Below are positions 5,674 to 21,010 of a stretch of DNA of 32,000 nucleotides, one piece after another. Source of the DNA: Candidatus Electronema aureum (GTDB lineage Bacteria > Desulfobacterota > Desulfobulbia > Desulfobulbales > Desulfobulbaceae); NCBI GenBank assembly GCA_004284765.1, contig NQJD01000029.1:1387-33386 (forward strand), in the 5' to 3' direction. A program made the position numbers and the translations under genes. The notes under the pieces are model-generated. The model was not told where the DNA came from. It saw only the letters and a list, made by a program, of their open reading frames with translations, and did no database searches. Position 1 is the stretch's first letter. Every line of letters begins with the position of its first letter.

Positions 5674-5934
5674 TCAATCAAAAATCTCCAGCCGCTTGAG
5701 AGCATCAGCACTCAGCGGTTTCTCTCCCCTAACCGGCTGTCGCAGCAGTGGTTCAAGATCGGCAAAATAAATGAACGCCAGCACGGGCCGAGCTGATGGG
5801 TCCATCAGCTGTCGCCGAGCTTCGGCAATTTCGTATGCTGAATGCTGCTTTTCCCGTAACGCTAAGGCAGCGGCCTGCATGATTTCTTGTGCCGATGCTT
5901 CTGGGCCGATATTTAGTATTTTAAAGGGATTCAT
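5674..5934 (-). CDS. Small J-domain-like protein lacking the HPD tripeptide
   Basis: 86 aa. NPFKILNIGPEASAQEIMQAAALAL mirrors J-domain helices I-II (d.Y.iLgv...As..eIk.Ay..la). ARRQLMDPSAR mirrors helix III-IV (A...L.Dp.kR). No HPD is present. It overlaps the TPR gene end by 14 nt and is followed by the GrpE-like gene. Confidence 0.45.
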   Translation of the reverse strand: MNPFKILNIGPEASAQEIMQAAALALREKQHSAYEIAEARRQLMDPSARPVLAFIYFADLEPLLRQPVRGEKPLSADALKRLEIFD

Positions 5935-7612: not shown

Positions 7613-7626
7613 TGGGTTGCTTCCAT

Positions 7627-7655
7627 TTGACAGAACGAGATTTTCCTGTCACTAT
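7627..7655 (+). promoter_or_regulatory. Sigma-70 promoter candidate for the hdeA-like gene
   Basis: TTGACA (7627-7632), a 17-nt spacer, then CACTAT (7650-7655). It lies about 55 nt upstream of ATG 7712, which has a GGAGG SD at 7702-7706. Confidence 0.4.
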
Positions 7656-7711
7656 CTTTATACGGTTTAGCCATTTTTCAACATATTCTATCAAACTTCA
7701 CGGAGGATTTT

Positions 7712-8038
7712 ATGCGTAAAACAAAGAAAGCAGCACTCTTAGCCATGCTGCTGTTGTTATCGATAGTTGTCGTGACAGGTGTTCAAGCCGCAGAAAAAGA
7801 GATTAAAAAAGACGAAAAGGTAGATATGGCTACCTACACCTGCGCTGATCTTCTGGCTGAAAACGAAGACGAGGTTGGCATGATTCTATTGTGGGTTGAT
7901 GGCTATTTGAGCGGTAAAACCAACGACACGGTCATCAACATGACCTTTATCGGCGAATTAGCTGAAAACGTCGGGAAAAAATGCGGCGAAAACGGAAAAG
8001 CCAAATTACTCGACGTGGTTAAAGAACTAACGGAATAG
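7712..8038 (+). CDS. HdeA/HdeB-family-like periplasmic protein (signal peptide)
   Basis: 108 aa. The signal peptide is MRKTKKAALLAMLLLLSIVVVTGVQA. The mature part has YTCADLL...LLWVDGYLSG...KKCGENG, i.e. the two-Cys and W.dGy pattern of HdeA-like acid/unfolding chaperones. Strong SD. Confidence 0.55.
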   Translation: MRKTKKAALLAMLLLLSIVVVTGVQAAEKEIKKDEKVDMATYTCADLLAENEDEVGMILLWVDGYLSGKTNDTVINMTFIGELAENVGKKCGENGKAKLLDVVKELTE

Positions 8039-8053
8039 CCCCGAATCGCTAGT

Positions 8054-9391
8054 TCAGCGGAGAATAATTTTGACCGTCTTGCCCGGTATGACCTCCTGAT
8101 TGCCGTAAAAAATCATGCTTGAATATCTGGGCAGAAAAAATCGAGCATAGATGGAACGCCACGTCTCGTCGGACCGCACTTGGTATTTCCAGAGTATGAG
8201 GCCCTCGCGCTGTTCAATCTTGCGTTGATAAAAGGCGGCAGCCTCGCGGCGGTCAGTAAAAAGTCGCACCGAGCTGCCCTTTCTGATGAAGCCGAGGAAA
8301 ATGTGGGGGTTCTGCTCCATTACCACCGGATAATATTTGCGGTTGCCGTAGAACCGCTCGGCAATGTCCCAAGCATTTTCTCCGTCCTTGACTAAATAAG
8401 AGAACGTTCCTCCGCGCTGTATTGGCGCGAAATTCTGCACCTGTTCAGCAGCAGGAGTACCGACTGTTTCCATCGCTATCGACTTCACCCGGTGCTTCCT
8501 GTACTTAGGCGTAAGAACTACAGGCGGCGTTTCCGGTAGAACGGCCAGTTCAGCATTGTTTTCCGATGGAATAGCCTGCGCTACGGCTAAAGCCTGTGGT
8601 TCAGCTACTACCACAGCCGCTTCTACTTCTGCCGGATTTGCTGATTTTTCCTCCGCTGGTGCCAATGGCACTGCTTGCTCCGTTGTTTTTTCAACAGGAA
8701 CTGGTGGTGGCATCTTACTGCCTAACAACTCTACCTCGGCTGTGTCCGGGAGTACCTCCTCTCGAACAACTTTTACAAGTTTTGTCGCCTCGTTCTCAGC
8801 TTCTACCGTTTTTTTCTGATCTACAGGAAGCTCATCCGGCACAAGGGCACGCTCGCTTTTTTCCTTGGCGACAACAGGCACAGCATTCTCCTCTGTATTC
8901 TTGCTGGAAGTCTGCTCGTGGTTTTCGCCTACAAGTTCCTGCTTTGCTGCGACAGTTTCCGTCTCTCGCTCATCCAAGATGCGCACCTGAGCATCAATAT
9001 GAATTTTGCTTTCAGGAGGCAGCACCGGTTCGACAACGTTTTTATTTTCTGGCGCGGATGACAATGACTCTTCGTGCTTTTTCTTCATTGCCGCCCGCTG
9101 TTCCGCCGCCTTGAGTTCGGCTAACTGGTGGTCTAATTCAGACAAACGACTTTTCATGCTCACTGATAGACCAGCAAGGAGCAACAGGACAGCAGTCACA
9201 ATGATCGCGATAGCAACCCAAGGAAAACGACGTTTGGGTAGCAGAGCTGCTGCTGTTTTGGCCGCTGCTGGGTCAGAGAGCGAATCTAAGGCTTGAAAAC
9301 AGGTCAGGTCTGCATCGCACTGAGGGCAGCTGCCGCAGTTCGGCGGTAAGCCGTGCCGTCCACAAACCGGACAGGTGTGCGTCTGACTCAT
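8054..9391 (-). CDS. Zinc-ribbon / single-TM / coiled-coil / low-complexity / LysM-like envelope-anchored protein
   Basis: 445 aa with these elements in order:
- N-terminal CPVC-x8-CGSCPQC.
- TM helix FPWVAIAIIVTAVLLLLAGLSV.
- Coiled coil (SELDHQLAELKAAEQRAA).
- About 200 aa of E/P/A/V-rich spacer.
- Two degenerate LysM-like units (YLVKDGENAWDIAERFYG..., YQVRSDETWRSIYARFF...).
Its start overlaps the Hsp70 gene stop (ATGA, 9388-9391). Confidence 0.7.
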   Translation of the reverse strand: MSQTHTCPVCGRHGLPPNCGSCPQCDADLTCFQALDSLSDPAAAKTAAALLPKRRFPWVAIAIIVTAVLLLLAGLSVSMKSRLSELDHQLAELKAAEQRAAMKKKHEESLSSAPENKNVVEPVLPPESKIHIDAQVRILDERETETVAAKQELVGENHEQTSSKNTEENAVPVVAKEKSERALVPDELPVDQKKTVEAENEATKLVKVVREEVLPDTAEVELLGSKMPPPVPVEKTTEQAVPLAPAEEKSANPAEVEAAVVVAEPQALAVAQAIPSENNAELAVLPETPPVVLTPKYRKHRVKSIAMETVGTPAAEQVQNFAPIQRGGTFSYLVKDGENAWDIAERFYGNRKYYPVVMEQNPHIFLGFIRKGSSVRLFTDRREAAAFYQRKIEQREGLILWKYQVRSDETWRSIYARFFLPRYSSMIFYGNQEVIPGKTVKIILR

Positions 9392-11703
9392 TTGCGAATA
9401 TCTCGGTGAATTTTCTGAATGCTGCGACCGTGCTGGTCCAGCACCTCTTCGACTTCTGGCATCACTGCCAGCACCTGTTCAAAACGCAGCTCCTCGCCCG
9501 CCTCAGCCGAGGCCAGCACCTCTGCTGCCGCCCGCATAAAACGCTTGGCCTTATCTGGCTCAGTTTGGTGGCAAATTTCGCAAGCATTCTCAATCTGCGT
9601 CAAGGCGTGTACCACCTCCAGTCCCGGATTCTCTAAAACATTGGACAGCTCATCCATTGCCTGCATGGTTTCCTCATAGCTTCCTTCTTCATCGGTCTCG
9701 CGCAGCTGCTGGATTTTTCTCAAAATGCGTTCCTGTAAGGCTGGCGCGATCAGCATTCCATAATCCGCCAACATGCTTTCTGCGTAATAAATCTGGGTTA
9801 GCGGAGCTTCCTCGGCTTCGGAGATGCGCACCGCCTTGTTGATCTTTTCCTCCACCCGACGGCAAGCAGCTCCATCAACCTCACCGGTTTGCGCATCAAC
9901 CACTTTATGGAGCGCGCGAATAATACCTTTAGCCCGACAGAGCAAATCGGCCACCGTATAGGTAGAGCAGCCTTTGCGGTCAGCCTCATTAATGATCTGC
10001 TCAAGGCGCAGAAAGAGTCGCTCATCCGCCTTGCCGCGCGAGAGCGTACCTTCCACCTTCCCCTTGAGTTGGCCGACTAAGGCCGCCTGCACTGAAACCA
10101 AATTATTTTCATCGATGTTCAAAGTGACAGCAAGACGCGGCAATTCTTCCGTCTGCGGCGCGGTTGTGCTATCTCGATCGATGCCTAACCAAAGGTCGCC
10201 GATGCGTTCCTCTTTGTTATTGACCACATTATAAAATTGCATATGCACCAGCTCTTGTTCGGCATCAACAAGCTGAAAAATCTCCGTGCTGGAGCAGGGT
10301 AATACACTGTTTTTTTTCACCAAGAGAAAACGCTGATCATTCTCCAAGCGGATGAAGTAGTCATGGGCCGCTGCATGAACGATATCGACCAGACCATGCT
10401 TGGTTGTGTAGGTTGCGAGATTAAATTGGCAATGCGGGCAGTTGGCGTTATGCTGGGATGTTTCCCCACCGCAGCTCGGACATTCCAGCGTATCTGCTAA
10501 TCGATGGCTGAGAATAGCTGCACCTTCGGCCACTGCCAACATAGGCCGCTCATGGAGTAACACTTTGTCTGCACCAAATTCCTGCCGCAGCGTCTTGATT
10601 ACACAGGGAATACGCGAACTACCGCCGACTAAAAGCACATGGTCAATCAAATCCGGGCTGAAATACGCCTCGGCCAGTAAATTTCGCAGCAATCGGAGCA
10701 TGGTTGTCAGCAAAGGAGCCAGCATCTCCTCTAACTGTTCTTGGCTCAATTCTGCTTCAATATGAATCGGATCGCCGTCCTCGTCCGTGAGCAAACCAAG
10801 CACAGCAATGCAGGCTTCGGGGCTGTCGCTGAGGGCAATTTTAGCCTTTTCTGCCGCCGTTTTTAGTTCGGCAAGCAAACGATTGCGCTGACTTGGCTCC
10901 AGCCGTCCGAGCAGAGCGCGGAGGCGAACATCATCCATGCCTTCCTTGGCCGCTGTTTCTCGCAGGGCATGGCTAATGATCAGGTTGTCGATGTCCTCGC
11001 CACCTAACCACATGTCGCCGCCTTTGGCCATTTCAATGATCTGGCCGCCGCTGATCGCCAGCAGCGAGAGGTCGAGAGTGCCGCCGCCGAAATCAAAAAC
11101 CAGCACGGTTTTGCCTTCGTCACTAGATATCTGATCCACGCCAAAGGAAATGGCTGCTGCTGTCGGCTCGGACAAAAGACGGCTGACTTTGAGACCAGCC
11201 AAAGCAGCAGCGGTGCGGGTGGCGTGCTTTTGTTTATCGTTGAAATAGGCAGGCACGGTGATCACTGCTGTCTCTACCTCATCACCGAGGATACGTTCGG
11301 CATCAGCCTTGATTTTAATGAGAATCTGGGCTGAAATTTCTTCTGGGCTGAACTCTCGTCCTCCGGCAGCAATCGCCAAACTGTTCTGAGAACCGCTGGA
11401 ATAGGGCGAGAGCGGACAGCGAAATCTGCCGTTTTTAATCAGTTCTTGCACTTCTGGATCGTGAAAATTGCGTCCAATTAGCCGCTTGACCGCTGTGATA
11501 GTGTTCTCCGGTTCCTGCCGCAGCCATTCCAAAGCGTGGCGACCGACGATGAACTCTGGTTTGCGTATCAGCCGTTTACGAACAGTGACGCAAGAAGGAG
11601 TGATGAAGTCACCTTCTGCATTTTTCAGCACCTCAACCCGCACTTTTTTAATCGCGGCAGCGGAATTGGTAGTTCCCAGATCAATGCCGATGGATTTTTT
11701 CAT
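9388..11703 (-). CDS. Atypical Hsp70-superfamily ATPase (771 aa) with inserted zinc ribbon and long helical tail
   Basis: Actin-fold nucleotide motifs are IGIDLGTTNS, DFGGGTLDLS and LLVGGSSRIP. CPSC-x10-CPHC (nt 10429-10482) sits right after the NBD (AVAEGAAILS). A beta-rich SBD-like segment follows, then about 200 aa of helical C-terminus. ATG 11703 (MKKSIGIDLG) is preferred over the ORF-track GTG 11763. Confidence 0.85.
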   Translation of the reverse strand: MKKSIGIDLGTTNSAAAIKKVRVEVLKNAEGDFITPSCVTVRKRLIRKPEFIVGRHALEWLRQEPENTITAVKRLIGRNFHDPEVQELIKNGRFRCPLSPYSSGSQNSLAIAAGGREFSPEEISAQILIKIKADAERILGDEVETAVITVPAYFNDKQKHATRTAAALAGLKVSRLLSEPTAAAISFGVDQISSDEGKTVLVFDFGGGTLDLSLLAISGGQIIEMAKGGDMWLGGEDIDNLIISHALRETAAKEGMDDVRLRALLGRLEPSQRNRLLAELKTAAEKAKIALSDSPEACIAVLGLLTDEDGDPIHIEAELSQEQLEEMLAPLLTTMLRLLRNLLAEAYFSPDLIDHVLLVGGSSRIPCVIKTLRQEFGADKVLLHERPMLAVAEGAAILSHRLADTLECPSCGGETSQHNANCPHCQFNLATYTTKHGLVDIVHAAAHDYFIRLENDQRFLLVKKNSVLPCSSTEIFQLVDAEQELVHMQFYNVVNNKEERIGDLWLGIDRDSTTAPQTEELPRLAVTLNIDENNLVSVQAALVGQLKGKVEGTLSRGKADERLFLRLEQIINEADRKGCSTYTVADLLCRAKGIIRALHKVVDAQTGEVDGAACRRVEEKINKAVRISEAEEAPLTQIYYAESMLADYGMLIAPALQERILRKIQQLRETDEEGSYEETMQAMDELSNVLENPGLEVVHALTQIENACEICHQTEPDKAKRFMRAAAEVLASAEAGEELRFEQVLAVMPEVEEVLDQHGRSIQKIHRDIRK

Positions 11704-11729
11704 ACCGTGTCTGTTCGGAGCAGAGGGGA

Positions 11730-12806
11730 TCAGAGGGCAGAAAGGGTAAAGCTGAAGACGCACCCTCTTTCAGCTTGATTTTCAGCTCGAAGAACACCAC
11801 CATGTAGCTCAATGATTTTTTTCACCACGGCCCAGCCGAGACGGCTATCTTTTCTACTGTCCGCCGGACCTGCTGGATCAGCAAACAAGTGTTCCAGCTC
11901 TTTTTCGCTCAAGCCCGGCCCTTGATCAGCAACCGCCACGCGGACTGCGCTGCCTGCCTGCTCCGCGCTCAAGACAACAACTGAGCCAGCCGGAGAATGC
12001 TTAACCGCGTTGCTCAAGAGATTATCTACCGCTTGTCGAATGCGGCTTGGATCAAGATTGAAAATCGGCAGCGTAGTCAGACGCTCAACAATGACGATTT
12101 GTTTCTTTGCTGCTGCTTGTTGCTGTAGTTGCGCTGCCTGCCGAAGAACTTCTGTGAGCGAGGCAGGCTGCCTGTTGATCTTAAAGGTACCATCACCAAC
12201 GGCGGAAACATCGAGCAAGTCGTTGATTAGGCGCTGCATGGCTGTGGCCGTCTCGTTAATGGCCAGCAGGTGCGTATCTATATTACTGCGCATTTCAAAA
12301 AAACTGCTATCCATCAGCATTTCGGTCATGGTGATAATGTAGCCGAGCGGATTGCGCAAATCATGGGCAGCAATGCGCAAAAAACGATCTTTAATCTTAT
12401 CTAATTCTAACAAGCGGTCGTGTGCCTCAACGAGCCGCCTGCCCACAGAAATTCGGCTGTGCAGTTCACCAATATGCACCGGTTTGCTGAGAAAATCATG
12501 CGCCCCATGATCTAAAGCATGAACCACATCCTCCTTGTCGCTTCTACCAGTGAGTAGAATGGTGTAGATCAGCGGCACAGCACCTTTTTCCTGCGCATTG
12601 AGCCGAGAGCAGATTTCTACCCCATCTAAGCCGGGCATCATCCAGTCTAACACCGCGATTCGGGGTGGTTCTGGGCTGCGCAGGATGGTCATGGCCTCCA
12701 GTCCATCCGCAGCCTCAATCACCTCATAGCCCCAGCGGGCCGCGCAATGCCGGAGCAAAATTCGGGTAGAAAGTTCATCGTCGGCGATCAGTAGTTTCAT
12801 GGACAT
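11730..12806 (-). CDS. Hybrid response-regulator receiver / histidine kinase (REC-HisKA-HATPase_c), no sensor domain
   Basis: REC domain: LLIADDE...VLDWMMPGLDG. H-box: RIAAHDLRNPL. N box: LLSNAVKHS. G boxes: DQGPGL and GWAVVKKIIELHGG. The stop lies 26 nt upstream of the Hsp70 ATG. Confidence 0.85.
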   Translation of the reverse strand: MSMKLLIADDELSTRILLRHCAARWGYEVIEAADGLEAMTILRSPEPPRIAVLDWMMPGLDGVEICSRLNAQEKGAVPLIYTILLTGRSDKEDVVHALDHGAHDFLSKPVHIGELHSRISVGRRLVEAHDRLLELDKIKDRFLRIAAHDLRNPLGYIITMTEMLMDSSFFEMRSNIDTHLLAINETATAMQRLINDLLDVSAVGDGTFKINRQPASLTEVLRQAAQLQQQAAAKKQIVIVERLTTLPIFNLDPSRIRQAVDNLLSNAVKHSPAGSVVVLSAEQAGSAVRVAVADQGPGLSEKELEHLFADPAGPADSRKDSRLGWAVVKKIIELHGGVLRAENQAERGCVFSFTLSAL

Positions 12807-12847
12807 GGTGCGTTTTTTTTCAAAAGACGGGGAAAAGGTGACGTGTC

Positions 12848-12876
12848 AACGTAAAGTAAAAACACAATGAAGTCAA
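12848..12876 (-). promoter_or_regulatory. Sigma-70 promoter candidate for the kinase-Hsp70 operon
   Basis: On the minus strand: TTGACT (12876-12871), a 17-nt spacer, then TACGTT (12853-12848). It lies about 40 nt upstream of ATG 12806. Confidence 0.3.
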
Positions 12877-13093
12877 CACGAACAGCCAGTAACTGCGAGC
12901 ATCTTCCGCAGATATTTTTCCTGCCAGCAAGTTGCCTGTTGCTCATTTTCAGAGGTATCATATATGATGGCAGCCTAATTTTGGTGTATTATACTCAGAC
13001 AGCGGCGGATTGTATATATTTTGGAAAAAATGAGCCAGCAGCGGCGCATCTTGCGCAGTTATTCAGCCTTTGTTTTTTGGCAAGAACAAAATC

Positions 13094-13690
13094 ATGACCA
13101 CTGATACCGGATTTTTGCTCTACGCCGCTCTGTACCGATTGGCTGTGCTGGCAGTTGGTGCGTTGTCTATTTGGCTGGGCTTTCGTTTGTTCAGCAATGC
13201 CAAGCAAGAGAACAGCTCGGCTGATGGCTCCGTCAGCGCGGAAGGCGGTGGTTTCAAGCTGGCCTTCACCAATTTGCTGCCCGGAACTTATTTCGCGTTG
13301 TTCGGCACGGTGATCATCAGCGTAATGCTATGGAAAGGCGAGCCGCAATTCTTTCAGCAGGAACTCAAGGAGCTGACCAAAGGCGAGAAGACAGTCACGA
13401 CAACAGAATTGCGCACCAGCATAGAACTGGAATGGAAAAAGCTGGATAAGTCCGGCATCACGCTGGCGGAAGCAGCCGAGACTATGGAAACCATTGCCAA
13501 GCTGCTGCGGCAGGAAAACCGCATCGGCGAAGCAGTGGCGATGGCAAAGCTGGCGGCTTTGTACGGCAAAGAAGAAGGCAGGGCGGAGCGTCTTGATTTG
13601 CTGGCTGAACTGCTGCGGGCAAATGGCAATGAGGAGGAGGCAGTGCAAACCGAGCAGGCCGCCGAATCCTTGCGGAGGCCAGAGAAATGA
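13094..13690 (+). CDS. Two-TM membrane protein with helical (TPR-like) C-terminal half, unknown function
   Basis: Hydrophobic helices are LLYAALYRLAVLAVGALSIWLGF and GTYFALFGTVIISVMLW. The C-terminal part is helical and E/A/L-rich. ATG 13094 is preferred over the ORF-track TTG 13070. Its stop overlaps the caspase gene start (ATGA, 13687-13690). Confidence 0.6.
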   Translation: MTTDTGFLLYAALYRLAVLAVGALSIWLGFRLFSNAKQENSSADGSVSAEGGGFKLAFTNLLPGTYFALFGTVIISVMLWKGEPQFFQQELKELTKGEKTVTTTELRTSIELEWKKLDKSGITLAEAAETMETIAKLLRQENRIGEAVAMAKLAALYGKEEGRAERLDLLAELLRANGNEEEAVQTEQAAESLRRPEK

Positions 13691-15090
13691 AGCTGCGCGG
13701 AAGACGCTTGCTGCTGCTGATCGCGCTGATCGCGCTGGCCGTGCTGCCTGCGGCGGCGCAGGCGCAGACAGCTTCCGGCTTTGGCCGTTGTTTTCATGCC
13801 GTGGTGATTGGGTGTCAGAATTACAAGCATCTCAGGACGCTGAAAACGCCGCTGGCTGATGCTAAAGCGGTCGCTAAGGTGCTGAAAGAGCAGTATGGCT
13901 TCACGGTGAACTTGCTGTTGGACAAAAACAGGGACGAAATTATGCTGGCCCTGTCCGAGCTGCGCAAAACCATGACTGCGGAAGAGGACAGCCTGCTGAT
14001 CTACTACGCCGGACACGGCTATTTGGACGAGGCGAGCGGAGCGGGGTACTGGCAGCCCGTGGATGCGGAGAAGGACAACATTGTTTATTGGCTTCCGACC
14101 TCAGAAATCAGCAATTTGCTCAGAGCAATCCGCGTTCGGCACGTGCTGGTGGTGGCAGATTCTTGCTATTCAGGGGAAATCGTCATGCGCAAATCAGAGG
14201 CGCAGCTTCCCGCCGCCGTCAGCAATGACGAATGGCTGCGGCGGATGCAGGCGAAACGGTCGCGCCAAGCCTTGACTTCCGGCCTGAAAGAGCCTGTAAT
14301 GGACGGCGGGGGCGGCGGCCATTCGATCTTCGCCAAGGCGTTGCTGGAGGCATTGCGGGAAAACCGGCAGATACTGGACGGAACAAGACTGTTCAGCCTC
14401 ATCAAAGATCCGGTCTCGAACAACGCCCTGCAACAGCCCGTGTATGACTCCATCCCGATGACCGGGCATGAGATGGGAGATTTTCTGCTGGTGCCGAAGG
14501 AGTTGCAGAAGGGAGGAATTCAGGCGCAGCCGGAGCACAAGGCGGATTTGAGTTTTCTGCAACGCAGCGGCGGTAACAGCGCAGCCACGCTGCCAGAAAA
14601 ACCGCGCCAGAATGCCGACCTACAGAAAGGCAGAACTATTGGGCAATATATTGATTATGGCGACGGCACGATAACTGACACGAAAAGCGGCTTGATGTGG
14701 AAACGCTGTCCAGAAGGTTTATTCGGCGTGAACTGCGAAGAGGGCAAGATTGAAACCTATAAATGGGATGATGTGTTTCAGCGTTTCAAGAATATCGAAT
14801 ACGCAGGCTATTCTGACTGGCGGCTGCCGACCATTGCTGAACTGAAAACTTTGGTATATTGCAGCAATGGAGTTAAAGACAAAGATTACGGTCGCTGCAA
14901 CGAGGGGTCTGAAGAACCGACGATCAATCAACAGGCTTTTCCGAATACTGAGGCAAATTACTTTTGGTCCGGGTCGCCGCATGCCGACAATTCGGACCTT
15001 GCGTGGTACGTCCATTTTGCCTATGGCAGTTCCTCCATCAGCAACCGCGTCAACAGCGATGCGGTACGTCTGGTGCGCGGCGGATGGTAG
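13687..15090 (+). CDS. Secreted caspase-family (peptidase C14) protein fused to a C-terminal DUF1566 (Lcl C-terminal, C-type-lectin-like) domain
   Basis: Sec signal peptide: MKLRGRRLLLLIALIALAVLPAAAQA. Caspase His/Cys dyad contexts: LLIYYAGHGY and VLVVADSCYSGE. The C-terminal 150 aa carry TDTKSGLMWKRC...YSDWRLPTIAELKTL...YFWSGSP...AWYVHFAYG...AVRLVRGG, the DUF1566 pattern. Confidence 0.85.
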   Translation: MKLRGRRLLLLIALIALAVLPAAAQAQTASGFGRCFHAVVIGCQNYKHLRTLKTPLADAKAVAKVLKEQYGFTVNLLLDKNRDEIMLALSELRKTMTAEEDSLLIYYAGHGYLDEASGAGYWQPVDAEKDNIVYWLPTSEISNLLRAIRVRHVLVVADSCYSGEIVMRKSEAQLPAAVSNDEWLRRMQAKRSRQALTSGLKEPVMDGGGGGHSIFAKALLEALRENRQILDGTRLFSLIKDPVSNNALQQPVYDSIPMTGHEMGDFLLVPKELQKGGIQAQPEHKADLSFLQRSGGNSAATLPEKPRQNADLQKGRTIGQYIDYGDGTITDTKSGLMWKRCPEGLFGVNCEEGKIETYKWDDVFQRFKNIEYAGYSDWRLPTIAELKTLVYCSNGVKDKDYGRCNEGSEEPTINQQAFPNTEANYFWSGSPHADNSDLAWYVHFAYGSSSISNRVNSDAVRLVRGGW

Positions 15091-15144: not shown

Positions 15145-15693
15145 ATGATATTCAACCCGGAAATCTACCGCCGCCGCTCCATCCGTCTGCCCGGTTACGA
15201 TTACACCAGAGCGGGCGCGTATTTCATCACCGTATGCGCCAGCGGCAAGGAATGCCTGTTCGGTGCGGTGGAAAACGGGCAAATGCGGCTGAATGATGCC
15301 GGTCGGATTGCCGATCAATGCTGGCACGACATTCCATTGCATTTTCATCATGCGATATTGGACGAATGGGTGGTAATGCCGAATCATGTGCATGGGATTG
15401 TTGTTCTTGACCATTGTCGTAGGGACACGGCATGCCGTGTCCCTACGACAATGGCGACAGCGGAACAATTTGGCCGTCCAGTTGCTGGCTCGATTTCAAC
15501 CATTGTCCGTTCATTCAAATCCGCTGTCACCCATCATCTCAACAAATTGCATGGTGCCGTCGGCGAAAAAATCTGGCAGCGCAATTTCTACGAACACATC
15601 ATCCGCAATGAAACAGAATTGCACGGCATCCGCGAATACATCCAGAACAATCCCGCCAAATGGGAATTGGATGAACTGCATGTCGCAGTGTAG
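15145..15693 (+). mobile_element. REP-associated tyrosine transposase (RAYT; IS200/IS605-type Y1 HUH transposase)
   Basis: 182-aa ORF containing RRSIRLPGYDYTRAGAYFITVC, the HUH motif MPNHVHGIVV, the catalytic-Tyr region WQRNFYEHIIRNE, and YIQNNPAKW. It is flanked 5' by the REP palindrome. Confidence 0.85.
15411..15454. repeat. 44-bp perfect palindrome inside the RAYT ORF (REP copy 2, extended arms)
   Basis: CCATTGTCGTAGGGACACGGCATGCCGTGTCCCTACGACAATGG is its own reverse complement. It encodes DHCRRDTACRVPTTMA in the linker between the HUH and Tyr motifs. The central 28 bp are identical to 15087-15114. Confidence 0.85.
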
Positions 15694-15747: not shown

Positions 15748-17481
15748 ATGACCAACCGAGCCATACTGCTCCGGCTGCGCGACGTGCTGCGGCCTTACAG
15801 CGGCAAGCTGCTCATCGCCATGGCCGCGATGATCGTAGTCGCCCTGTTCAACGCCGCCCAAGCCTACATGGTGCAACCGCTGCTGGACAAGATTTTTTAT
15901 GAAAAGAACGCTGCTTGGCTGACCGCGCTGCCGCTGGCCCTGCTGGCGATTTTTTTCGTCAAAGGGGTGTTTTATTTCTTCTATTCCTACCTGCTCGAAT
16001 GGGTTGGGCAGTCGGTGATCAAAGACCTGCGCAACAGCCTCTACGGCCATCTCCATGAGCTGTCGATGGGCTTTTTTTACAAGAATTCCACCGGCGAACT
16101 GATCTCGCGGATTATGAACGACGTGGCCATGCTCCAAGGCACGGTCTCGCACGCCCTGATCTACGTCCTGCGCGATTTTTTCAGCGTGGCCGGGCTGCTG
16201 GTGGTGATTTTTTACATGGACTGGCGGCTGGCCTTGGTCTCGCTTGTTTTCATTCCGATGGCCGCAGTGCCGATTGTGGTTTTCGGCAAGAAATTCCGCC
16301 GCATCAGCACCCGCTACCAGCAGGGCATGGGCGAGGCGAGCAATTTCCTCAACGAGACCATCCGGGGTGTCCGCATCGTCAAGGCCTTTTGCGCCGAGGA
16401 GCAAGAAAAACACCGCTTTGCGGCCAAGATGCAGCAGCTTTTCGACACCCTGATGAGCGAGACCCGCTACCGCAGCCTTGCCCATCCACTGATTGAATTT
16501 CTCGGCGGCATCGGCATGGCCCTGATCATCTGGTTTGGCGGCAGCGAGGTGCTGAAGGGCAACGCCACGCCCGGCACCTTCATGTCTTTTCTCACCGCTT
16601 TGGTCATGCTCTATGAGCCGATCAAGGGCGTGAGCAAGATCAATTCAACGGTGCAGTCGGGCATGGCTGGCGCGGCCCGCATCTTCGCGCTCTTGGACAC
16701 CGAGCCGGAAATCCGCGAGAAAGCGCAGCCGGTCGAGCTGCCGCCCTTCAGCCGCCAGATTGAATTCCGCAAGGTCAGCTTCGCCTATCAGCCCGGCGAG
16801 CTGGTGCTGCGCGATGTCAGCCTGACAATTGCGCGGGGCGAGGTGGTGGCCTTGGTCGGGCCGTCGGGCGGCGGCAAAAGCTCCTTGGCCAGCCTGCTGC
16901 CGCGCTTTCACGAGGTCACTGACGGCGCAGTCCTGCTCGACGGCCACGATCTGCGCGACCTCAGCCTGCGTTCGCTGCGCAGCCAGATTGCCATTGTCAC
17001 CCAGCAGACGATCCTGTTTAATGACACCGTGCGCAGCAACATCGCCTACGGCAGCCCGGATTGCACTGAGGAAGAGATCCGCCGGGCCGCCGCCGCTGCC
17101 TTTGCCTTGGATTTCATCGAAGCCTTTCCGCAGGGCTTTGACACCGTGATCGGCGAGTCTGGCGTGCGACTCTCCGGCGGCCAGCAGCAGCGGCTGTCCA
17201 TTGCCAGAGCGATCCTCAAGAACGCGCCGATCCTTATTTTAGATGAAGCCACGTCCGCGCTCGACACCGAATCTGAGCGCAAGGTGCAGCAGGCCCTCGA
17301 CAATCTGATGAAAAACCGCACCACCTTGGTCATTGCCCACCGCCTTTCGACCATCAAGAACGCCGACCGCATCGTGGTCATGCAGGACGGACGCATTGCC
17401 GAGGAAGGCGACCACGACAGCCTGCTCCGGCGCGGCGGCATCTACGAGGGGCTGCACAGCTTGCAGCACGCCGCCCGATGA
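15748..17481 (+). CDS. msbA: Lipid A export ABC transporter, fused permease/ATPase (MsbA-type)
   Basis: 577 aa with an N-terminal six-helix TMD. Walker A: GPSGGGKSS. ABC signature: LSGGQQQRLSIARA. Walker B: ILILDEATSALD. It heads an LPS-core operon, joined to the next gene by an ATGA overlap. Confidence 0.8.
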   Translation: MTNRAILLRLRDVLRPYSGKLLIAMAAMIVVALFNAAQAYMVQPLLDKIFYEKNAAWLTALPLALLAIFFVKGVFYFFYSYLLEWVGQSVIKDLRNSLYGHLHELSMGFFYKNSTGELISRIMNDVAMLQGTVSHALIYVLRDFFSVAGLLVVIFYMDWRLALVSLVFIPMAAVPIVVFGKKFRRISTRYQQGMGEASNFLNETIRGVRIVKAFCAEEQEKHRFAAKMQQLFDTLMSETRYRSLAHPLIEFLGGIGMALIIWFGGSEVLKGNATPGTFMSFLTALVMLYEPIKGVSKINSTVQSGMAGAARIFALLDTEPEIREKAQPVELPPFSRQIEFRKVSFAYQPGELVLRDVSLTIARGEVVALVGPSGGGKSSLASLLPRFHEVTDGAVLLDGHDLRDLSLRSLRSQIAIVTQQTILFNDTVRSNIAYGSPDCTEEEIRRAAAAAFALDFIEAFPQGFDTVIGESGVRLSGGQQQRLSIARAILKNAPILILDEATSALDTESERKVQQALDNLMKNRTTLVIAHRLSTIKNADRIVVMQDGRIAEEGDHDSLLRRGGIYEGLHSLQHAAR

Positions 17482-19946
17482 GCAGGCTCCGCAGCGGCGC
17501 AGGCCGGGCCAATGTCTGGCTGCCGGGCCTGCTCGCCTTTGCCCTGCCGCTTTCCACCTCGGCAGTGTCGGCAGTCGCCCTGCTAATCCTCCTGCTCTGG
17601 CTGATCGAAGGGAATTTCCTGCTCAAGCTGGCCGAGACCCTCTTCACGCCAGTCGCGGCGACAGTGCTGGGATACTTGGCCCTGCTCTGCCTCGGCCTGC
17701 TCTGGACAGCAAACCCGGCGGACGGCCTCAGCGTCCTGCAAAGCCACTGGAAGATTGCCCTGCTGCCGGTCTTCCTCACCGCTGTCCGCCACGAACGGCG
17801 CGCCTTCTACCTGAGCTGCTTCATCGCCGGGATGAGCGCGGCCATGCTCCTCACCTTCTTGGTCTGGCTCGGCCTTGTCCAGTACGCCGATGTCAGCCCG
17901 GCGCATCTCACGCCCAAGACCTTTCACGTCGTCTACAACCCTCTGCTGGCCTTCGCCATCTACCTGACCTTGCACAAGGCAGTCTGGGAGGAGCCAAGGC
18001 GGCGGGCGCGGGCGGGCCTCTTCGCGCTGGCCGGGCTGATGAGCGTCAACATGTTTATGACCGAGGGCCGCACCGGGCAGGCCGCCTTCTTCGTCCTCCT
18101 CAGCCTCTTTCTCCTGCAAGTCTTTGGCCGGAAGCGCGTGCGGGCGGTACTCCTCCTCTGTCTGCTGCTGCCTGCGGGCATCGCTGCCGGCTATGTAGCC
18201 AGCCCGGTCTTTCAGCAGCGGGTTGACTTAGCCCTGAGCGAAGCCTCCGGCTTTCACGACAACCCCAACACCTCAGTGGGTCTGCGCCTTCAGTTCTGCC
18301 AGAACGCGCTTGCCCTCATCCGCCAGCAGCCCTGCCTCGGCGTGGGCACCGGCGATTTCAAAGCCGCCTACGGTCTGGTCAACCAGCAGCGCAGCCCGCA
18401 CTGCGTCAGCACCGACAACCCGCACAACCAGTACCTCTTGAGCGCGGCGCTGCTCGGCCTGCCCGGCCTGCTCATCCTGCTGCTGGTCTTCTTCCTCATG
18501 CTGCGGCAGGCCCGCTCTGAGCAGGAGGACAGCCTCTGCCGTGCGCGTTTCGCCTTCCCGCTCTTCTTCGCAGTCATCATGCTGGCGGAGTCCTATCTCA
18601 AGGTCTATCAGACCGCCTTCCTCTTCGCCCTGATGACCGCTGTGCTGTACAAAAAAAAGCCACTGCCGCAGGCCGAGGGCCGCAGCTGGCTGATTCTCTC
18701 CTACCGGGCCAACATCCCCGGTTCAGCCTGCTCGCAGCATCTGGACGACCGGCTGCCGCACTTGCAGGCCCAAGGCATTGAACCGGTGCTGCTCACCGGC
18801 CCGGCTGGTCTTGCCCACCCGACATGGCGGCACTTCCGCACTGTCAGCCTCGCGCCCTCCGGCCTCCGCTTCGAGCTGCGCCATTACCTCCGACGCCGAC
18901 TGCGCCACCGCTGGCAGTTCAAGCTGGTTGAGACCCTGCTCCTCCTGCCGGTGCTGCCCTTCTACCTGCTGGAGAAGATCGTCGTCAATCTGGAGAGCGA
19001 ATGGTCCTGGGGCCTGCTTGCCTCGCTGCGCGGCCTGCTGCTCTGCCGCCAGCTCAGGCCGGAGCTGGTTTACTCGACCGGCGGCTCGGCCTCGGCCCAT
19101 GTCGCGGGCCTGCTGATCAAGCGCTGGACTGGCATCCGCTGGATCGCTGAGACCCAAGACCCGCTCGTGCACGACCAAGGCTGGCGACGCAGCCGTCTCG
19201 CTCTGCTGCTGTATACGAATCTGGAGCGGCGCATCTGCCAGCAAGCCGACCTCTTCGTCTTTCTCGTCGGCGCGGCGCTGGAGCACTGCCGCCAGCGCAC
19301 GGGCGGCGGCAGGCTGGCTGTAGTCTATCCCGGCGCGGAGCCGTCCTGGTTCGGGCAGCAGGAGCTATACAGCAAAGGCGGCCGCTGCTCCTTCGCGCAC
19401 TTCGGCTCGCTCTCCGGCACGCGCAACCTGGCAGTCTTCTTCCAGGCACTGGAGCAGGTGGTCAGCGGCAGGCCGGAGCTGCGCGGCAGGGCGCAGGTGG
19501 ACGTGTACGGCTCCTTTGACAGCCTGTCGGAGCGGGAGATGCAACGCCTGCGCCTGCACGACCTCGTCAGGGTGCATGGGCCGGTGCCGCGAGAGGAGGC
19601 CATAGCCCGAATGCAGCAGGCAGACTGCCTGCTCTTAGTGCAGAACATCATCTACTTCTCCTGCGAGACCATCCCGTCCAAGGTCTATGAGTACCTGCTC
19701 ACAGGCCGCCCGATCCTCGGCCTGCTGCATAATAATAAGGAGCTGGCCGCTATGCTGCGGGACAGCGGCCATCGCGCCACGCCTGCCGATGACGTGCAGG
19801 CCACAGCCGCAGCCATCGCCGCGATCTTGGACGACTGGGCTGCGGATAAGCTGACAGCCGCTATGGCGGTGGACAGGCCCTGGACTGTCGAGGCGGCGGT
19901 GCGCAAGCTGATCTGCCTGAGCGAGGGCTGTAGCTCCTGCGCATGA
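17478..19946 (+). CDS. Fusion protein: O-antigen-ligase-like (Wzy_C/WaaL-type) polytopic membrane domain + C-terminal GT-B glycosyltransferase-like domain
   Basis: 822 aa. The first ~400 aa are multi-TM and carry the NPHNQYLLSAALLGLPGLL motif typical of O-antigen ligase family loops. The second half is soluble with GT-B features (WLILSYRAN..., GSLSGTRNL, ETIPSKVYEYLLTGRPILGL). ATGA overlaps occur at both ends. Confidence 0.7.
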   Translation: MSRLRSGAGRANVWLPGLLAFALPLSTSAVSAVALLILLLWLIEGNFLLKLAETLFTPVAATVLGYLALLCLGLLWTANPADGLSVLQSHWKIALLPVFLTAVRHERRAFYLSCFIAGMSAAMLLTFLVWLGLVQYADVSPAHLTPKTFHVVYNPLLAFAIYLTLHKAVWEEPRRRARAGLFALAGLMSVNMFMTEGRTGQAAFFVLLSLFLLQVFGRKRVRAVLLLCLLLPAGIAAGYVASPVFQQRVDLALSEASGFHDNPNTSVGLRLQFCQNALALIRQQPCLGVGTGDFKAAYGLVNQQRSPHCVSTDNPHNQYLLSAALLGLPGLLILLLVFFLMLRQARSEQEDSLCRARFAFPLFFAVIMLAESYLKVYQTAFLFALMTAVLYKKKPLPQAEGRSWLILSYRANIPGSACSQHLDDRLPHLQAQGIEPVLLTGPAGLAHPTWRHFRTVSLAPSGLRFELRHYLRRRLRHRWQFKLVETLLLLPVLPFYLLEKIVVNLESEWSWGLLASLRGLLLCRQLRPELVYSTGGSASAHVAGLLIKRWTGIRWIAETQDPLVHDQGWRRSRLALLLYTNLERRICQQADLFVFLVGAALEHCRQRTGGGRLAVVYPGAEPSWFGQQELYSKGGRCSFAHFGSLSGTRNLAVFFQALEQVVSGRPELRGRAQVDVYGSFDSLSEREMQRLRLHDLVRVHGPVPREEAIARMQQADCLLLVQNIIYFSCETIPSKVYEYLLTGRPILGLLHNNKELAAMLRDSGHRATPADDVQATAAAIAAILDDWAADKLTAAMAVDRPWTVEAAVRKLICLSEGCSSCA

Positions 19947-21010
19947 AGCACCGCCGCATTCTCATTGTCAAGCCCAGCTCGCTCGGCGACATCGTCCACA
20001 CGCTGCCGCTGGCACACGCGCTCAAACGCTGCTGGCCGGACTGCCGCATCGGCTGGATCGTCCAGCAGGTCTTCGCGCCTTTGCTGGCGGCGGACGCGAG
20101 CATAGACCGCATCTACCCCATCCACATCCCCTCGACCAGCGAGCCGCAAGCGGGCCGCTCCGCCTGGCTGACCGCCTTCAGCGCGACCCTGAAGACCCTG
20201 CGCGGCCTGCGCCGCCAGTTGCAGGCGGAGCCGTATGACCTCATCCTTGACCTCCACGCCTCGCTGCGCAGCGGGCTGCTGGGCCGCTGCAATCCGGGCG
20301 GCCTGCGCCTTGGTTTCGCCGATGCCAAAGAGCTGAACACGCTCTTTCAGCAGCAGCTTGTCGCTGTCCCGGCAGACGTGCGGCACGCGCAGGATAAGAA
20401 CCTGCTTTTCTGCCAGCAGCTTGGTCTCAGTGTGACCGCAGCGGATTTCCACCTCCGCTGCGGCGCGGCAGACCGCGAGGCGGCGCAGGCCTTCTTGCGC
20501 GAGACGGACGCGGCTGGGAAGAGGGTCGTTCACGCCAACCCGGCGGCCCGCTGGCAGACCAAATTCTGGCCGCAGGAACGCTGGGCCGAGCTGGCCGACC
20601 GCCTGCAAGGCCAAGGGCTGGCCGTGGTCTTCGGCGGCAGCGGGCAGGACGCGGCCTATTTAGACGGCATTGTCCGCCTGATGCGCAGCCCGACTGTCAT
20701 CGCCGCTGGCAGGCTCAGTCTGCCGCAGGCCGCAGCCCTGATCGCCCAATCCGCCCTGCACATCGGCTTGGATTCCGGCCCAATGCACATCGCCGCCCTG
20801 GCTGGCGTGCCGGTCGCCGCGCTCTTCGGCCCGACGCACCCGGAACGCGTTGGCCCCTACGGCGTGCAGCACCGCATCATCCGCGCCGAAAGCCTGTCCT
20901 GCTTGGAGTGCCGCAAACGCAGCTGCTCCCATCTTTCCTGCATGAGAGGCATTTCTGTGCCAATGGTCTATGAAGCCGCGCTGTCTTTGCTTGAATTATC
21001 TGAGTCATGA
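19943..21010 (+). CDS. ADP-heptose:LPS heptosyltransferase (GT9; N-terminus WaaC-like)
   Basis: 355 aa. RILIVKPSSLGDIVHTLPLAHALK resembles the WaaC/RfaC N-terminus. Also present: GSGQD, DSGPMHIAAALGVP-like (DSGPMHIAALAGVP), and LFGPTHP. Confidence 0.8.
   Translation: MKHRRILIVKPSSLGDIVHTLPLAHALKRCWPDCRIGWIVQQVFAPLLAADASIDRIYPIHIPSTSEPQAGRSAWLTAFSATLKTLRGLRRQLQAEPYDLILDLHASLRSGLLGRCNPGGLRLGFADAKELNTLFQQQLVAVPADVRHAQDKNLLFCQQLGLSVTAADFHLRCGAADREAAQAFLRETDAAGKRVVHANPAARWQTKFWPQERWAELADRLQGQGLAVVFGGSGQDAAYLDGIVRLMRSPTVIAAGRLSLPQAAALIAQSALHIGLDSGPMHIAALAGVPVAALFGPTHPERVGPYGVQHRIIRAESLSCLECRKRSCSHLSCMRGISVPMVYEAALSLLELSES

Follow-up and report, generated by a model that had tools for sequence, protein, structure and literature searches.

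The stretch of DNA analyzed here, hereafter the window, comprises 32,000 nucleotides (nt) of Candidatus Electronema aureum, a freshwater cable bacterium, and all positions without a locus label are given in its numbering. On its forward strand lie two open reading frames (ORFs) that form a genuine two-gene operon of a caspase and a partner with two transmembrane (TM) helices. Gene 1 (13094-13690) encodes a 198-amino-acid (aa) inner-membrane protein predicted to consist of a 2-TM hairpin, a linker and a tetratricopeptide repeat (TPR) tail, and gene 2 (13687-15090) encodes a 467-aa protein predicted to be an exported orthocaspase with a C-terminal Lcl_C (DUF1566) domain. A preliminary description of this DNA had proposed an operon of two genes coupled through an ATGA overlap, and the ORF listing returned exactly these reading frames, with the stop codon of gene 1 and the start codon of gene 2 overlapping at 13687-13690. 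A GGAGG Shine-Dalgarno sequence (13674-13678) is located 8 nt 5' of the gene 2 ATG, and direct reading of the stretch 13674-13690 on the forward strand suggests that the two genes are translationally coupled through the overlap and this sequence. The start of gene 1 was placed at the ATG at 13094, where every homologue in the alignment begins with the same Met; an in-frame TTG further upstream (13070) was ruled out on this basis. The intergenic stretch 5' of the pair (12807-13093, forward strand) is a putative promoter region with sigma-70-like hexamer pairs at 12932-12961 and 12967-12995; the consensus scan returned 8 promoter-like sites against 2.1 expected over the stretch that it covered.

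The gene 1 product was modeled with AlphaFold2 (AF2) on 26 homologues, and the model comprises two TM helices (aa 4-34, 13103-13195; aa 63-80, 13280-13333) and a five-helix tail at aa 99-194 with a predicted local distance difference test score (pLDDT) above 90. The helices are separated by a basic, predicted cytoplasmic loop (aa 35-62, 13196-13279), in which strands 48-51 and 54-57 were built as a low-confidence beta-hairpin (pLDDT < 50). A linker (aa 81-110, 13334-13423; pLDDT < 50 for aa 82-98) leads from the second helix to the C-terminal TPR-like domain (about aa 111-194, 13424-13675; pLDDT 89-95), which is predicted to be periplasmic. The best Foldseek matches of the tail were consensus or designed TPR proteins, with template-modeling scores (TMt) of about 0.7 (up to 0.74) and E values from 2e-3, and TPR sequence profiles remained below threshold on it (TPR_12, 15 bits against a Pfam cutoff of 30); the model thus points to a three-repeat TPR fold. 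The invariant positions of gene 1 cluster in both TM helices, with Y10, R15, L16, G22, G29 and the LGFRLF motif in the first and P63-G-x-Y-F-A-L-F-G71 (PGxYFALFG) in the second, where P63, G64, F67, F70 and G71 were kept in 175-179 of 179 sequences. Across the hairpin family, the motifs read Y..R-L...G......LG[FY]RLF and PGx[YF]FALFG. Since the TM hairpin is the most conserved part of the protein, it is expected to be more than a mere anchor.

Close homologues of gene 1 numbered 67, and all named ones were cable-bacterial. A profile restricted to the hairpin retrieved 1281 clusters (at the 50% identity level) from 1.84 billion proteins; among the 150 best matches listed, most were 200-290 aa long and carried the hairpin at the N-terminus. 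No family for gene 1 was found in Pfam, NCBIfam or PADLOC, including matches with E values up to 10, and no family of the EACC1, SLATT or CATRA type was matched; for SLATT, the check covered 10 family members in Pfam at E values up to 10. From its conserved motifs and its adjacency to exported protease genes, the hairpin is proposed to define a large unannotated family of membrane proteins that are partners of exported proteases.

The gene 2 product begins with a Sec-type signal peptide (aa 1-26, 13687-13764; predicted cleavage AQA↓Q), the sequence of which, MKLRGRR / LLLLIALIALAVL / PAAAQA↓Q, displays n, h and c regions and an AxA site by inspection. Every cable-bacterial orthologue of gene 2 carries an equivalent signal, as do most of 49 caspases encoded beside a 2-TM gene at other loci. 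The signal peptide noted in the preliminary description is thereby upheld, and export by Sec is the prediction supported by inspection and by conservation of the signal. Tat export was considered unlikely because the twin Arg of the signal peptide varies among orthologues.

Downstream of the signal, Peptidase_C14 (PF00656) matched aa 37-255 (13795-14451; E = 2.9e-20; 73.4 bits against a cutoff of 21.4; profile positions 3-225 of 233). The AF2 model of this domain was confident (pLDDT 75-95), and its top Foldseek matches were MALT1 (E = 6.5e-12), Geobacter GSU0716 and metacaspases, which places the domain in the caspase-hemoglobinase fold; all of these matches belong to the Arg/Lys-specific side of the caspase family. 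The His/Cys dyad that had been read from YYAGHG and VADSCYSG proved intact. His110 (codon 14014-14016) aligned with the His of the MALT1 YYAGHGY motif, which we take to be the catalytic His415, and Cys160 is encoded at 14164-14166. Together with Asp158 and Gly163, both residues were invariant among the 49 partner caspases, and the four positions were 96-99% conserved in 113 homologues (His110, 98%; Cys160, 97%). Asp58, which was at least 90% conserved in the 49 partner caspases, aligned with the Asp of MALT1 'PLVDV', presumably Asp365. Asp58 and Asp158, the latter being the Asp of the DxC motif, thus correspond in the sequence alignment to two acidic MALT1 residues that presumably form the acidic S1 pocket, and are candidate S1-pocket residues for Arg/Lys specificity. 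These features mark gene 2 as a probable orthocaspase of the metacaspase/paracaspase (Arg/Lys-specific) type with an intact His-Cys dyad. Orthocaspases cut after basic residues (PMC6426788).

The caspase is followed by a linker predicted to be disordered (aa 256-326, 14452-14664; about 60-70 aa, with AF2 pLDDT < 50 from aa 277 on) and then by the Lcl_C domain, and the order of caspase, linker of about 70 aa and C-terminal DUF1566 given in the preliminary description was reproduced, both domains being recognized by Pfam. The linker contains DLSFLQR293↓S, with the R293 codon at 14563-14565, and the orthologue consensus reads 'DLxFLQRG' at this motif. A Phi-x-(R/K)-G/S-like motif (Phi, hydrophobic residue) was present 20-45 residues past the protease domain in most partner caspases, and DLSFLQR293↓S is, by its sequence, a candidate autoprocessing site. 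Lcl_C (PF07603, once DUF1566) covers aa 327-464 (14665-15078; E = 8.8e-32; 110.3 bits against a cutoff of 34.9; full profile, 1-117) and would be C-type-lectin-like by family membership; its AF2 model was too poor for a comparison (pLDDT about 30). The C-terminal domain of Legionella Lcl belongs to the same Pfam family, and its crystal structure revealed a C-type-lectin-like fold that binds sulphated glycans/glycosaminoglycans and trimerises (PMC11162425); in Lcl it sits on a collagen stalk, whereas in gene 2 it is fused to a protease. The recognition role first suggested for DUF1566 is in keeping with this lectin-like fold, but the domain is just one among many exchangeable accessory modules (FGE-sulfatase, Sel1, WD40, TPR, SH3). 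Orthologues of gene 2 were found in Electronema and Electrothrix at 60-75% identity, PADLOC returned a generic caspase match only, and the literature searched contained no description of caspase-DUF1566 fusions. The architecture had been called unusual, but it is not rare, given 1492 matches to the caspase family in cable bacteria and the 1281 clusters of 2-TM proteins.

The pairing of the two genes was conserved across genomes. In the GTDB species genomes of cable bacteria, 14 loci were found. The caspase gene lies directly 3' of the 2-TM gene in 12 of them, with the 4-base overlap in 9 of these 12; at one of the remaining two it lies 2.5 kilobases (kb) downstream, and at the other the contig ends past the 2-TM gene, so that a caspase is encoded downstream in 13 of the 14. 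ORF clustering of these loci gave the pair and antisense shadow ORFs only, with no third conserved gene. The domain after the caspase differed among them and was Lcl_C, FGE-sulfatase, SH3 plus FGE-sulfatase, or TPR. A metagenome scan seeded with the broader hairpin group yielded 80 loci, of which 24 were too short to judge and 56 were informative. A C14 gene was adjacent at 46 of the 80 in all four orientations (downstream, upstream, convergent and divergent), another locus had a C14 gene 728 base pairs off, and four had an adjacent CHAT protease, which belongs to the caspase superfamily; a clan-CD protease was thus paired with the hairpin at 51 of the 56 informative loci. Protease adjacency was likewise observed at 36 of 46 genome loci, regardless of gene order and strand. 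All of the 49 full-length partners scanned were Peptidase_C14 proteins by Pfam, and their extra domains were Sel1 (10), FGE-sulfatase (9), WD40 (7), Lcl_C (5) and TPR (4); the accessory domains seen include SH3, Sel1, PG_binding, Lcl_C and FGE/C-lectin. The named carriers included Marinobacter, a gammaproteobacterial metagenome-assembled genome (MAG) and Electrothrix, besides many unidentified metagenome contigs. These data show that the pair is a member of a widespread module, in which a constant hairpin is combined with an exported protease and the accessory domain is freely exchanged. The upstream 2-TM protein is therefore a genuine partner, as the preliminary description had assumed. Three outcomes had been named beforehand as speaking against that description, and the results went the other way in each: the pairing was conserved, the dyad aligned with catalytic positions and the signal peptide was supported.

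Several loci deviate from the common layout. A second pair of Candidatus Electronema aureum (L128:168-2173; 2-TM protein of 229 aa and caspase of 433 aa) falls in the broader group and not in the cable-bacterium-specific group. Lcl_C is a separate ORF after a 294-aa caspase in L012:6391-7791, and an FGE-sulfatase gene follows a caspase-SH3 gene in L131:6708-9471; these separate accessory ORFs may reflect frameshifts or a true split at the linker. In Electrothrix laxa (L013:6001-10982), a caspase-FGE-sulfatase gene lies 2.5 kb downstream of a truncated 161-aa 2-TM gene. Four loci (L068:6168-9551, L070:3183-4892, L077:2512-3486 and L103:774-3467) have no C14 gene, and a CHAT protease (Pfam E values from 1e-41 to 1e-60) adjoins the 2-TM/TPR gene; the CHAT proteins of L068 and L103 additionally contain TPR repeats and begin with a signal or lipoprotein signal. 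In Chloroflexota (L015:7-2731, L016:1955-5505 and L020:9-425), a WD40-caspase is encoded upstream of a hairpin protein of 138-139 aa, the tail of which includes F-x-A-R-G.

The same hairpin was also found with an unrelated class of peptidase. At 21 GTDB loci, from Dongiaceae, Chromatiaceae, Myxococcales, Methylomirabilota/Rokubacteria, Acidobacteriota and Aliagarivorans, the gene for a distant hairpin precedes one for a protein of about 450 aa that contains an HExxH region of the M48 type, and the two genes usually overlap by 4 bases. The caspase-type and M48-type hairpins aligned with an hhalign probability of 99.3% (E = 2.7e-20), and HMMER E values scaled to the library of 1.84 billion proteins ranged from 5e-9 to 3e-4 for 16 of 17 sequences, indicating that the two hairpin groups are homologous. 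One hairpin thus recurs with C14 caspases, CHAT proteases and M48-like zinc peptidases, which points to a general protease partner and not to a lineage-specific oddity. The M48-like partners showed weak similarity to BepA. In a Rokubacteria MAG (L037:5962-7290), a single ORF fuses the 2-TM hairpin to an M48-like body (profile positions 119-451); this ORF lacks the partner tail and the signal peptide and N-terminal part of the peptidase, and represents a natural fusion or a deletion. The locus of a related MAG (L042) looks degenerate.

The compartment in which the two proteins would meet was predicted from signals and charges. Sec or lipoprotein signals were present on nearly all partner proteases of the three classes. 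In 179 caspase-type partners, the N-tail had a mean of 0.17 Lys/Arg residues (97% have none), the inter-helix loop contained on average 4.27 Lys/Arg vs 2.82 Asp/Glu, and the 15 residues past the second TM helix contained 1.2 Lys/Arg vs 2.4 Asp/Glu. By the positive-inside rule, this charge bias would place the loop in the cytoplasm and both ends, including the TPR tail, in the periplasm. The L037 fusion, in which the M48-like body comes right after the second TM helix, argues that the protease is on the side of the partner C-terminus. The predicted topology is N-out/C-out, with a periplasmic tail.

The 179 caspase-type partner tails were aligned from the second TM helix onward. Between the end of this helix (G-x-P-[EQ]-[LF]) and the TPR domain, only one column was conserved and fully occupied, with Arg in 128 and Lys in 43 sequences (171/179, 95.5%). 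The corresponding residue in the window is R107, which lies in the sequence TELR↓T and is encoded at 13412-13414. The family pattern is Phi-x-Phi-(R/K)-G, with a hydrophobic residue at -3, a variable one at -2, Leu, Met, Ile or Val at -1, the basic residue, Gly in 129 sequences, and then Asp, Gly, Ser or Glu; the basic site is positioned 11-75 residues past the second TM helix. In three controls with shuffled and realigned linkers, the best column reached 0.50-0.66 as compared with 0.955 observed, and an alignment artefact of Lys/Arg-rich linkers was ruled out, as no shuffle exceeded 0.66. The linker of M48-type partners holds [YFW]-[SA]-G-Phi and no conserved basic residue, indicating that the linker motif follows the protease class. 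The basic motif fits the Arg/Lys specificity expected of the caspase type of gene 2, and the pattern resembles that of MALT1 cleavage sites, where P4 is hydrophobic, P1 is Arg and P1' is Gly. By these comparisons, the R107 motif is a candidate caspase cleavage or docking site. The preliminary description had left the 2-TM protein as a receptor, an inhibitor or an immunity partner with a helical tail; the helical tail is retained, now as a predicted TPR domain, and the role is narrowed to that of a likely substrate or pseudo-substrate with a conserved basic motif. The analysis thereby defines a large unannotated membrane family (1281 clusters) with a specific prediction, a single Arg/Lys-Gly site, R107 here.

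A syntenic locus allowed the turnover of the pair to be compared with that of its surroundings. L005:5947-7760 of Electronema sp. JC is the same chromosomal locus as window 13069-15090. Nucleotide identity between the two was 94% in the downstream MsbA/O-antigen genes, 91% in the REP-associated tyrosine transposase (RAYT) gene and about 76% in the 2-TM and caspase genes. The similarity stops at 14564, within the R293 codon, and beyond this point a TPR domain replaces Lcl_C; R293 is thus a domain-swap boundary as well as a candidate processing site. The 2-TM partner in L005 is a short form of 165 aa in which part of the TPR tail is missing. The difference between the flanks (94%) and the pair (about 76%), together with the domain swap, indicates that the pair turns over much faster than its surroundings, by swapping the module past the putative processing site R293.

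Among the systems compared, the EACC1-caspase system ('System 4', Kaur, Burroughs, Iyer & Aravind 2020, PMC7159879) is the closest documented analogue. There too, the gene beside that of a caspase encodes a small membrane protein, the TM segment of which contains Gly and is conserved to an unusual degree, and the caspase domain is constant with other domains highly variable, a likeness of organization only. EACC1, the gene of which lies upstream of the caspase gene, is cut by the caspase and goes on to form pores (PMC7159879; bioRxiv 10.1101/2025.11.14.688446). EACC1 itself has alpha+beta extensions on a single TM helix and lacks a TPR, whereas gene 1 has two TM helices and a TPR tail. The caspases described as its partners carry intracellular modules such as Avs NTPases and domains of the DnaK-like or nucleic-acid-binding kind and, judged by these fusions, would be cytoplasmic, whereas gene 2 has an export signal, and the putative cut site of gene 1, unlike that of the EACC1 system, would face the periplasm. 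Membership in the EACC1-caspase system was rejected: gene 1 did not match the EACC1 profile and has two TM helices with a TPR tail, gene 2 scored 80.2 bits against NF047832 (EACC1-associated caspase, NCBIfam), below the cutoff of 140, and the protease is predicted to be exported.

Operons of bacterial gasdermins and proteases resemble the pair in that a protease gene stands beside a latent membrane-damaging protein. In gasdermins, one cut removes an inhibitory C-terminal part and frees the membrane-damaging protein, a mechanism to which the EACC1 preprint also refers (bioRxiv 10.1101/2025.11.14.688446). They are soluble, beta-rich and cytoplasmic, whereas gene 1 is modeled as a constitutive alpha-helical membrane hairpin, with the events predicted at the periplasmic face. 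BepA (M48 plus TPR), NlpI-Prc and LbcA-CtpA provide another likeness, an envelope protease that works with a membrane-attached TPR protein. BepA combines an M48 protease and a TPR domain in one chain, and NlpI and LbcA are TPR partners of envelope proteases; unlike gene 1, adaptors of this type are lipoproteins or fused to the protease, have no 2-TM hairpin, are not part of a coupled pair and serve other protease classes. SLATT proteins share a two-helix membrane hairpin with gene 1 and have been proposed as conflict-system effectors (PMC7159879), but they are coupled to nucleotide signaling and the gene 1 hairpin to proteases, and gene 1 did not match the SLATT profile. The orthocaspases and metacaspase-like proteases (MaOC1; GSU0716, PDB 3bij) have the C14 fold and the His-Cys dyad in common with gene 2, for which their cleavage after Arg/Lys is also expected (PMC6426788), and resemble the partner caspases in their fusions to FGE-sulfatase, WD40, TPR or Sel1. 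The literature searched gave no account of systematic orthocaspase export or of an obligatory 2-TM partner gene and no description of the 2-TM and caspase pair, and it joined cable bacteria and orthocaspases in only one sentence of PMC12163305. The pair is ordinary as a caspase fusion; the partner system, for which no published description was found, is widespread and experimentally tractable.

We favor the reading, with a probability of about 0.4, that the pair is a periplasm-side module of a protease and a membrane partner, analogous to EACC1-caspase, in which the caspase would cleave the partner and the loss of its tail would alter the hairpin. We infer the topology, the cleavages at R107 and R293 and their consequence as follows. 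The hairpin would be inserted N-out/C-out, such that the linker and the TPR tail share the periplasm with the protease. The caspase would recognize Phi-x-Phi-(R/K)↓G in the partner linker and cut there, at R107 in the window, and would probably also cut its own linker at FLQR293↓S, freeing the lectin-like domain. On loss of the TPR tail, the conserved hairpin would change its state and most likely oligomerise into a membrane lesion or pore, and the outcome could be depolarisation, dormancy or cell death, in parallel to EACC1 and gasdermins but with the stimulus on the periplasmic side. Lcl_C, the accessory domain in this case, may provide the trigger or the targeting by binding glycans or proteins of the envelope or of foreign origin. 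A protease-gated partner is favored because the hairpin is the constant element across protease classes, because the variable parts, the tail and the linker motif, track the protease, and because EACC1 works in this way. A set of observations weighs against this reading. The hairpin has no detectable sequence similarity to EACC1, SLATT or any known pore-former, the predicted cytoplasmic loop is just about 30 aa long, and the evidence for the topology consists of the positive-inside rule and a single fusion. The window residue after R107 is Thr and not Gly, AF2 puts R107 in a helix (aa 99-117, pLDDT about 70) outside the disordered stretch of aa 82-98, and the R/K-G motif might just as well serve for docking or, as a pseudo-substrate, for inhibition. 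The caspase partners of Chloroflexota appear to be without signal peptides, with none evident in L016 and the L015 N-terminus reaching the contig end; the charges of the hairpin proteins at these loci are distributed less clearly, and an inverted topology, with the tail meeting a cytoplasmic protease, may apply there. Finally, the housekeeping neighbors of L130 and L131 and a copy number of 1-2 would fit envelope maintenance as well as a death switch.

Such maintenance is the core of a possible, though less probable, account in which the 2-TM/TPR protein serves as an inner-membrane tether for the exported protease, be it as anchor, adaptor or inhibitor, and the pair does routine envelope work. 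The protease might be held inactive by the R/K-G element as a pseudo-substrate or be supplied with substrates, in the processing or quality control of proteins of the periplasm, the cell wall or the surface. The tail has a protein-binding TPR fold by its model, both proteins are predicted to be extracytoplasmic, the M48-like partners are weakly BepA-like, and the accessory domains are of the envelope-binding kind (SH3, Sel1, PG_binding, Lcl_C, FGE/C-lectin); the pair has 1-2 copies per genome, its neighbors in Marinobacter and L131 are housekeeping genes, and the window itself is a lipopolysaccharide (LPS)/lipid A region (LpxK, LpxC, MsbA, Wzy_C). A pseudo-substrate inhibitor would account for the linker motif as well as a substrate does, and although the motif co-varies with the protease class as a cleavage site would, so would a pseudo-substrate. 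What tethering leaves unexplained is the near-invariant residues inside both TM helices across phyla, and known TPR adaptors are outer-membrane lipoproteins encoded away from their protease. Even under this account, the partner would represent a novel type of membrane-tethered regulator for envelope proteases. The mere adjacency of an upstream ORF that is unrelated to the caspase or not a real gene is hardly credible: gene 1 has no family annotation, but hundreds of conserved homologues exist, and the survey contradicts chance placement with a protease adjoining at 51/56 informative metagenome and 36/46 genome loci.

If cleavage does occur, it could instead serve as a signal, with the exported protease making a site-1 cut in the periplasmic tail, as in DegS-RseA, that is relayed to a cytoplasmic output. 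The geometry would fit, with the protease in the periplasm, a substrate that spans the membrane and a conserved site within its periplasmic linker, but the sole predicted cytoplasmic part is the loop of about 30 aa without a recognizable output domain, and ORF clustering of the 14 cable-bacterial loci found no sigma factor, regulator or site-2 protease conserved nearby, making such a relay very improbable. A conflict or programmed-death system specific to multicellular filaments, killing or sealing cells (ghost cells, breakage) through the shared periplasm, was in line with the preliminary description, which had tied the architecture to multicellular or filamentous organisms. Such a system is favored by the strong expansion of the caspase family in cable bacteria, by domain swapping and a divergence of the pair that far outpaces that of its flanks, by the second pair of E. 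aureum and by a STAND-like NTPase-FGE-sulfatase gene encoded 7 kb off. A specific tie to multicellular or filamentous life was not supported: Marinobacter, whose members are unicellular, has the pair too, as do numerous metagenome contigs of unidentified origin, and the neighbors in L130 and L131 are housekeeping genes. No defense-island context was found, and in PADLOC the partner had no match and gene 2 a generic caspase match only. In favor of such a system are also a paper on ghost cells, which mentions cable-bacterial caspase-domain genes as being of unknown role and needing study (PMC12163305), and the statistical association of the EACC1-caspase system with the multicellular habit (PMC7159879); on balance, a filament-specific death system is judged clearly unlikely.

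A bolder form of the protease-gated module would be a true periplasmic counterpart of gasdermin and EACC1, in which the exported caspase senses a ligand of the envelope or of foreign origin through its exchangeable lectin-like or repeat domain, cuts off the tail of the pre-inserted two-helix protein and thereby lets the inner membrane open or collapse; this form is on the unlikely side. Cable-bacterium cells share one periplasm, and if this form is correct, the membrane switch could act beyond the cell in which it was triggered and underlie ghost cells or filament breakage, and the hairpin would be a general protease-gated membrane effector shared by three unrelated protease families. To our knowledge, the characterized prokaryotic modules of a protease and a latent effector (gasdermin, EACC1, Pepco, MBL and others) have all been described as cytoplasmic. 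The pair would move this logic to the periplasm, with a signal on the protease and a candidate site on the outer face of the inner membrane. It also offers candidate genes for the unexplained ghost cells and fragmentation of cable bacteria, organisms that are not growable in pure culture.

The surroundings of the pair were compared as well. The pair is divergent from response-regulator/histidine-kinase and Hsp70 genes, as the preliminary description had noted; the arrangement is real, but it is not conserved elsewhere and carries no functional link, and a connection to the kinase-Hsp70 operon was rejected after tblastn of the window neighbors against 46 related loci found none of these genes near the pair. 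The genes in common were those for RAYT, MsbA and O-antigen downstream of it, shared with the syntenic Electronema sp. JC locus alone. The two long loci L130 and L131 have housekeeping genes and no defense genes as neighbors, and the copy number of the pair is 1-2 per genome.

Directly 3' of the caspase gene lies a RAYT-like gene (15145-15693, forward strand), which scored 66.6 bits against NF047646, below the cutoff of 80, and matched Y1_Tnp in Pfam. The region 16000-21000, with a G+C content of 61-67% as compared with about 50-55% on both flanks, encodes MsbA, a Wzy_C O-antigen-ligase/glycosyltransferase fusion and, by eye, a probable heptosyltransferase. LpxK and LpxC are encoded at 161-2487, and the presence of these two with MsbA and Wzy_C indicates that the whole window is an envelope/LPS region. 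The NTPase-FGE-sulfatase gene 7 kb from the pair (22165-24288, reverse strand) encodes a protein of 707 aa, in which a P-loop NTPase at the N-terminus (LLADAGMGKSSLL and VLLLDGLNE; by eye STAND/NACHT-like) is joined to a C-terminal FGE-sulfatase domain (Pfam E = 1.7e-54), an architecture of the kind described for conflict systems. Upstream of the pair, a run of four genes on the reverse strand (5921-12806) encodes a response-regulator/histidine-kinase hybrid, a 791-aa Hsp70 with a zinc-ribbon insert, a 445-aa zinc-ribbon/TM/low-complexity/LysM-like protein and a 563-aa helical protein without a Pfam match; the tested genes of this run were absent from all related loci, indicating that it is unrelated to the pair.

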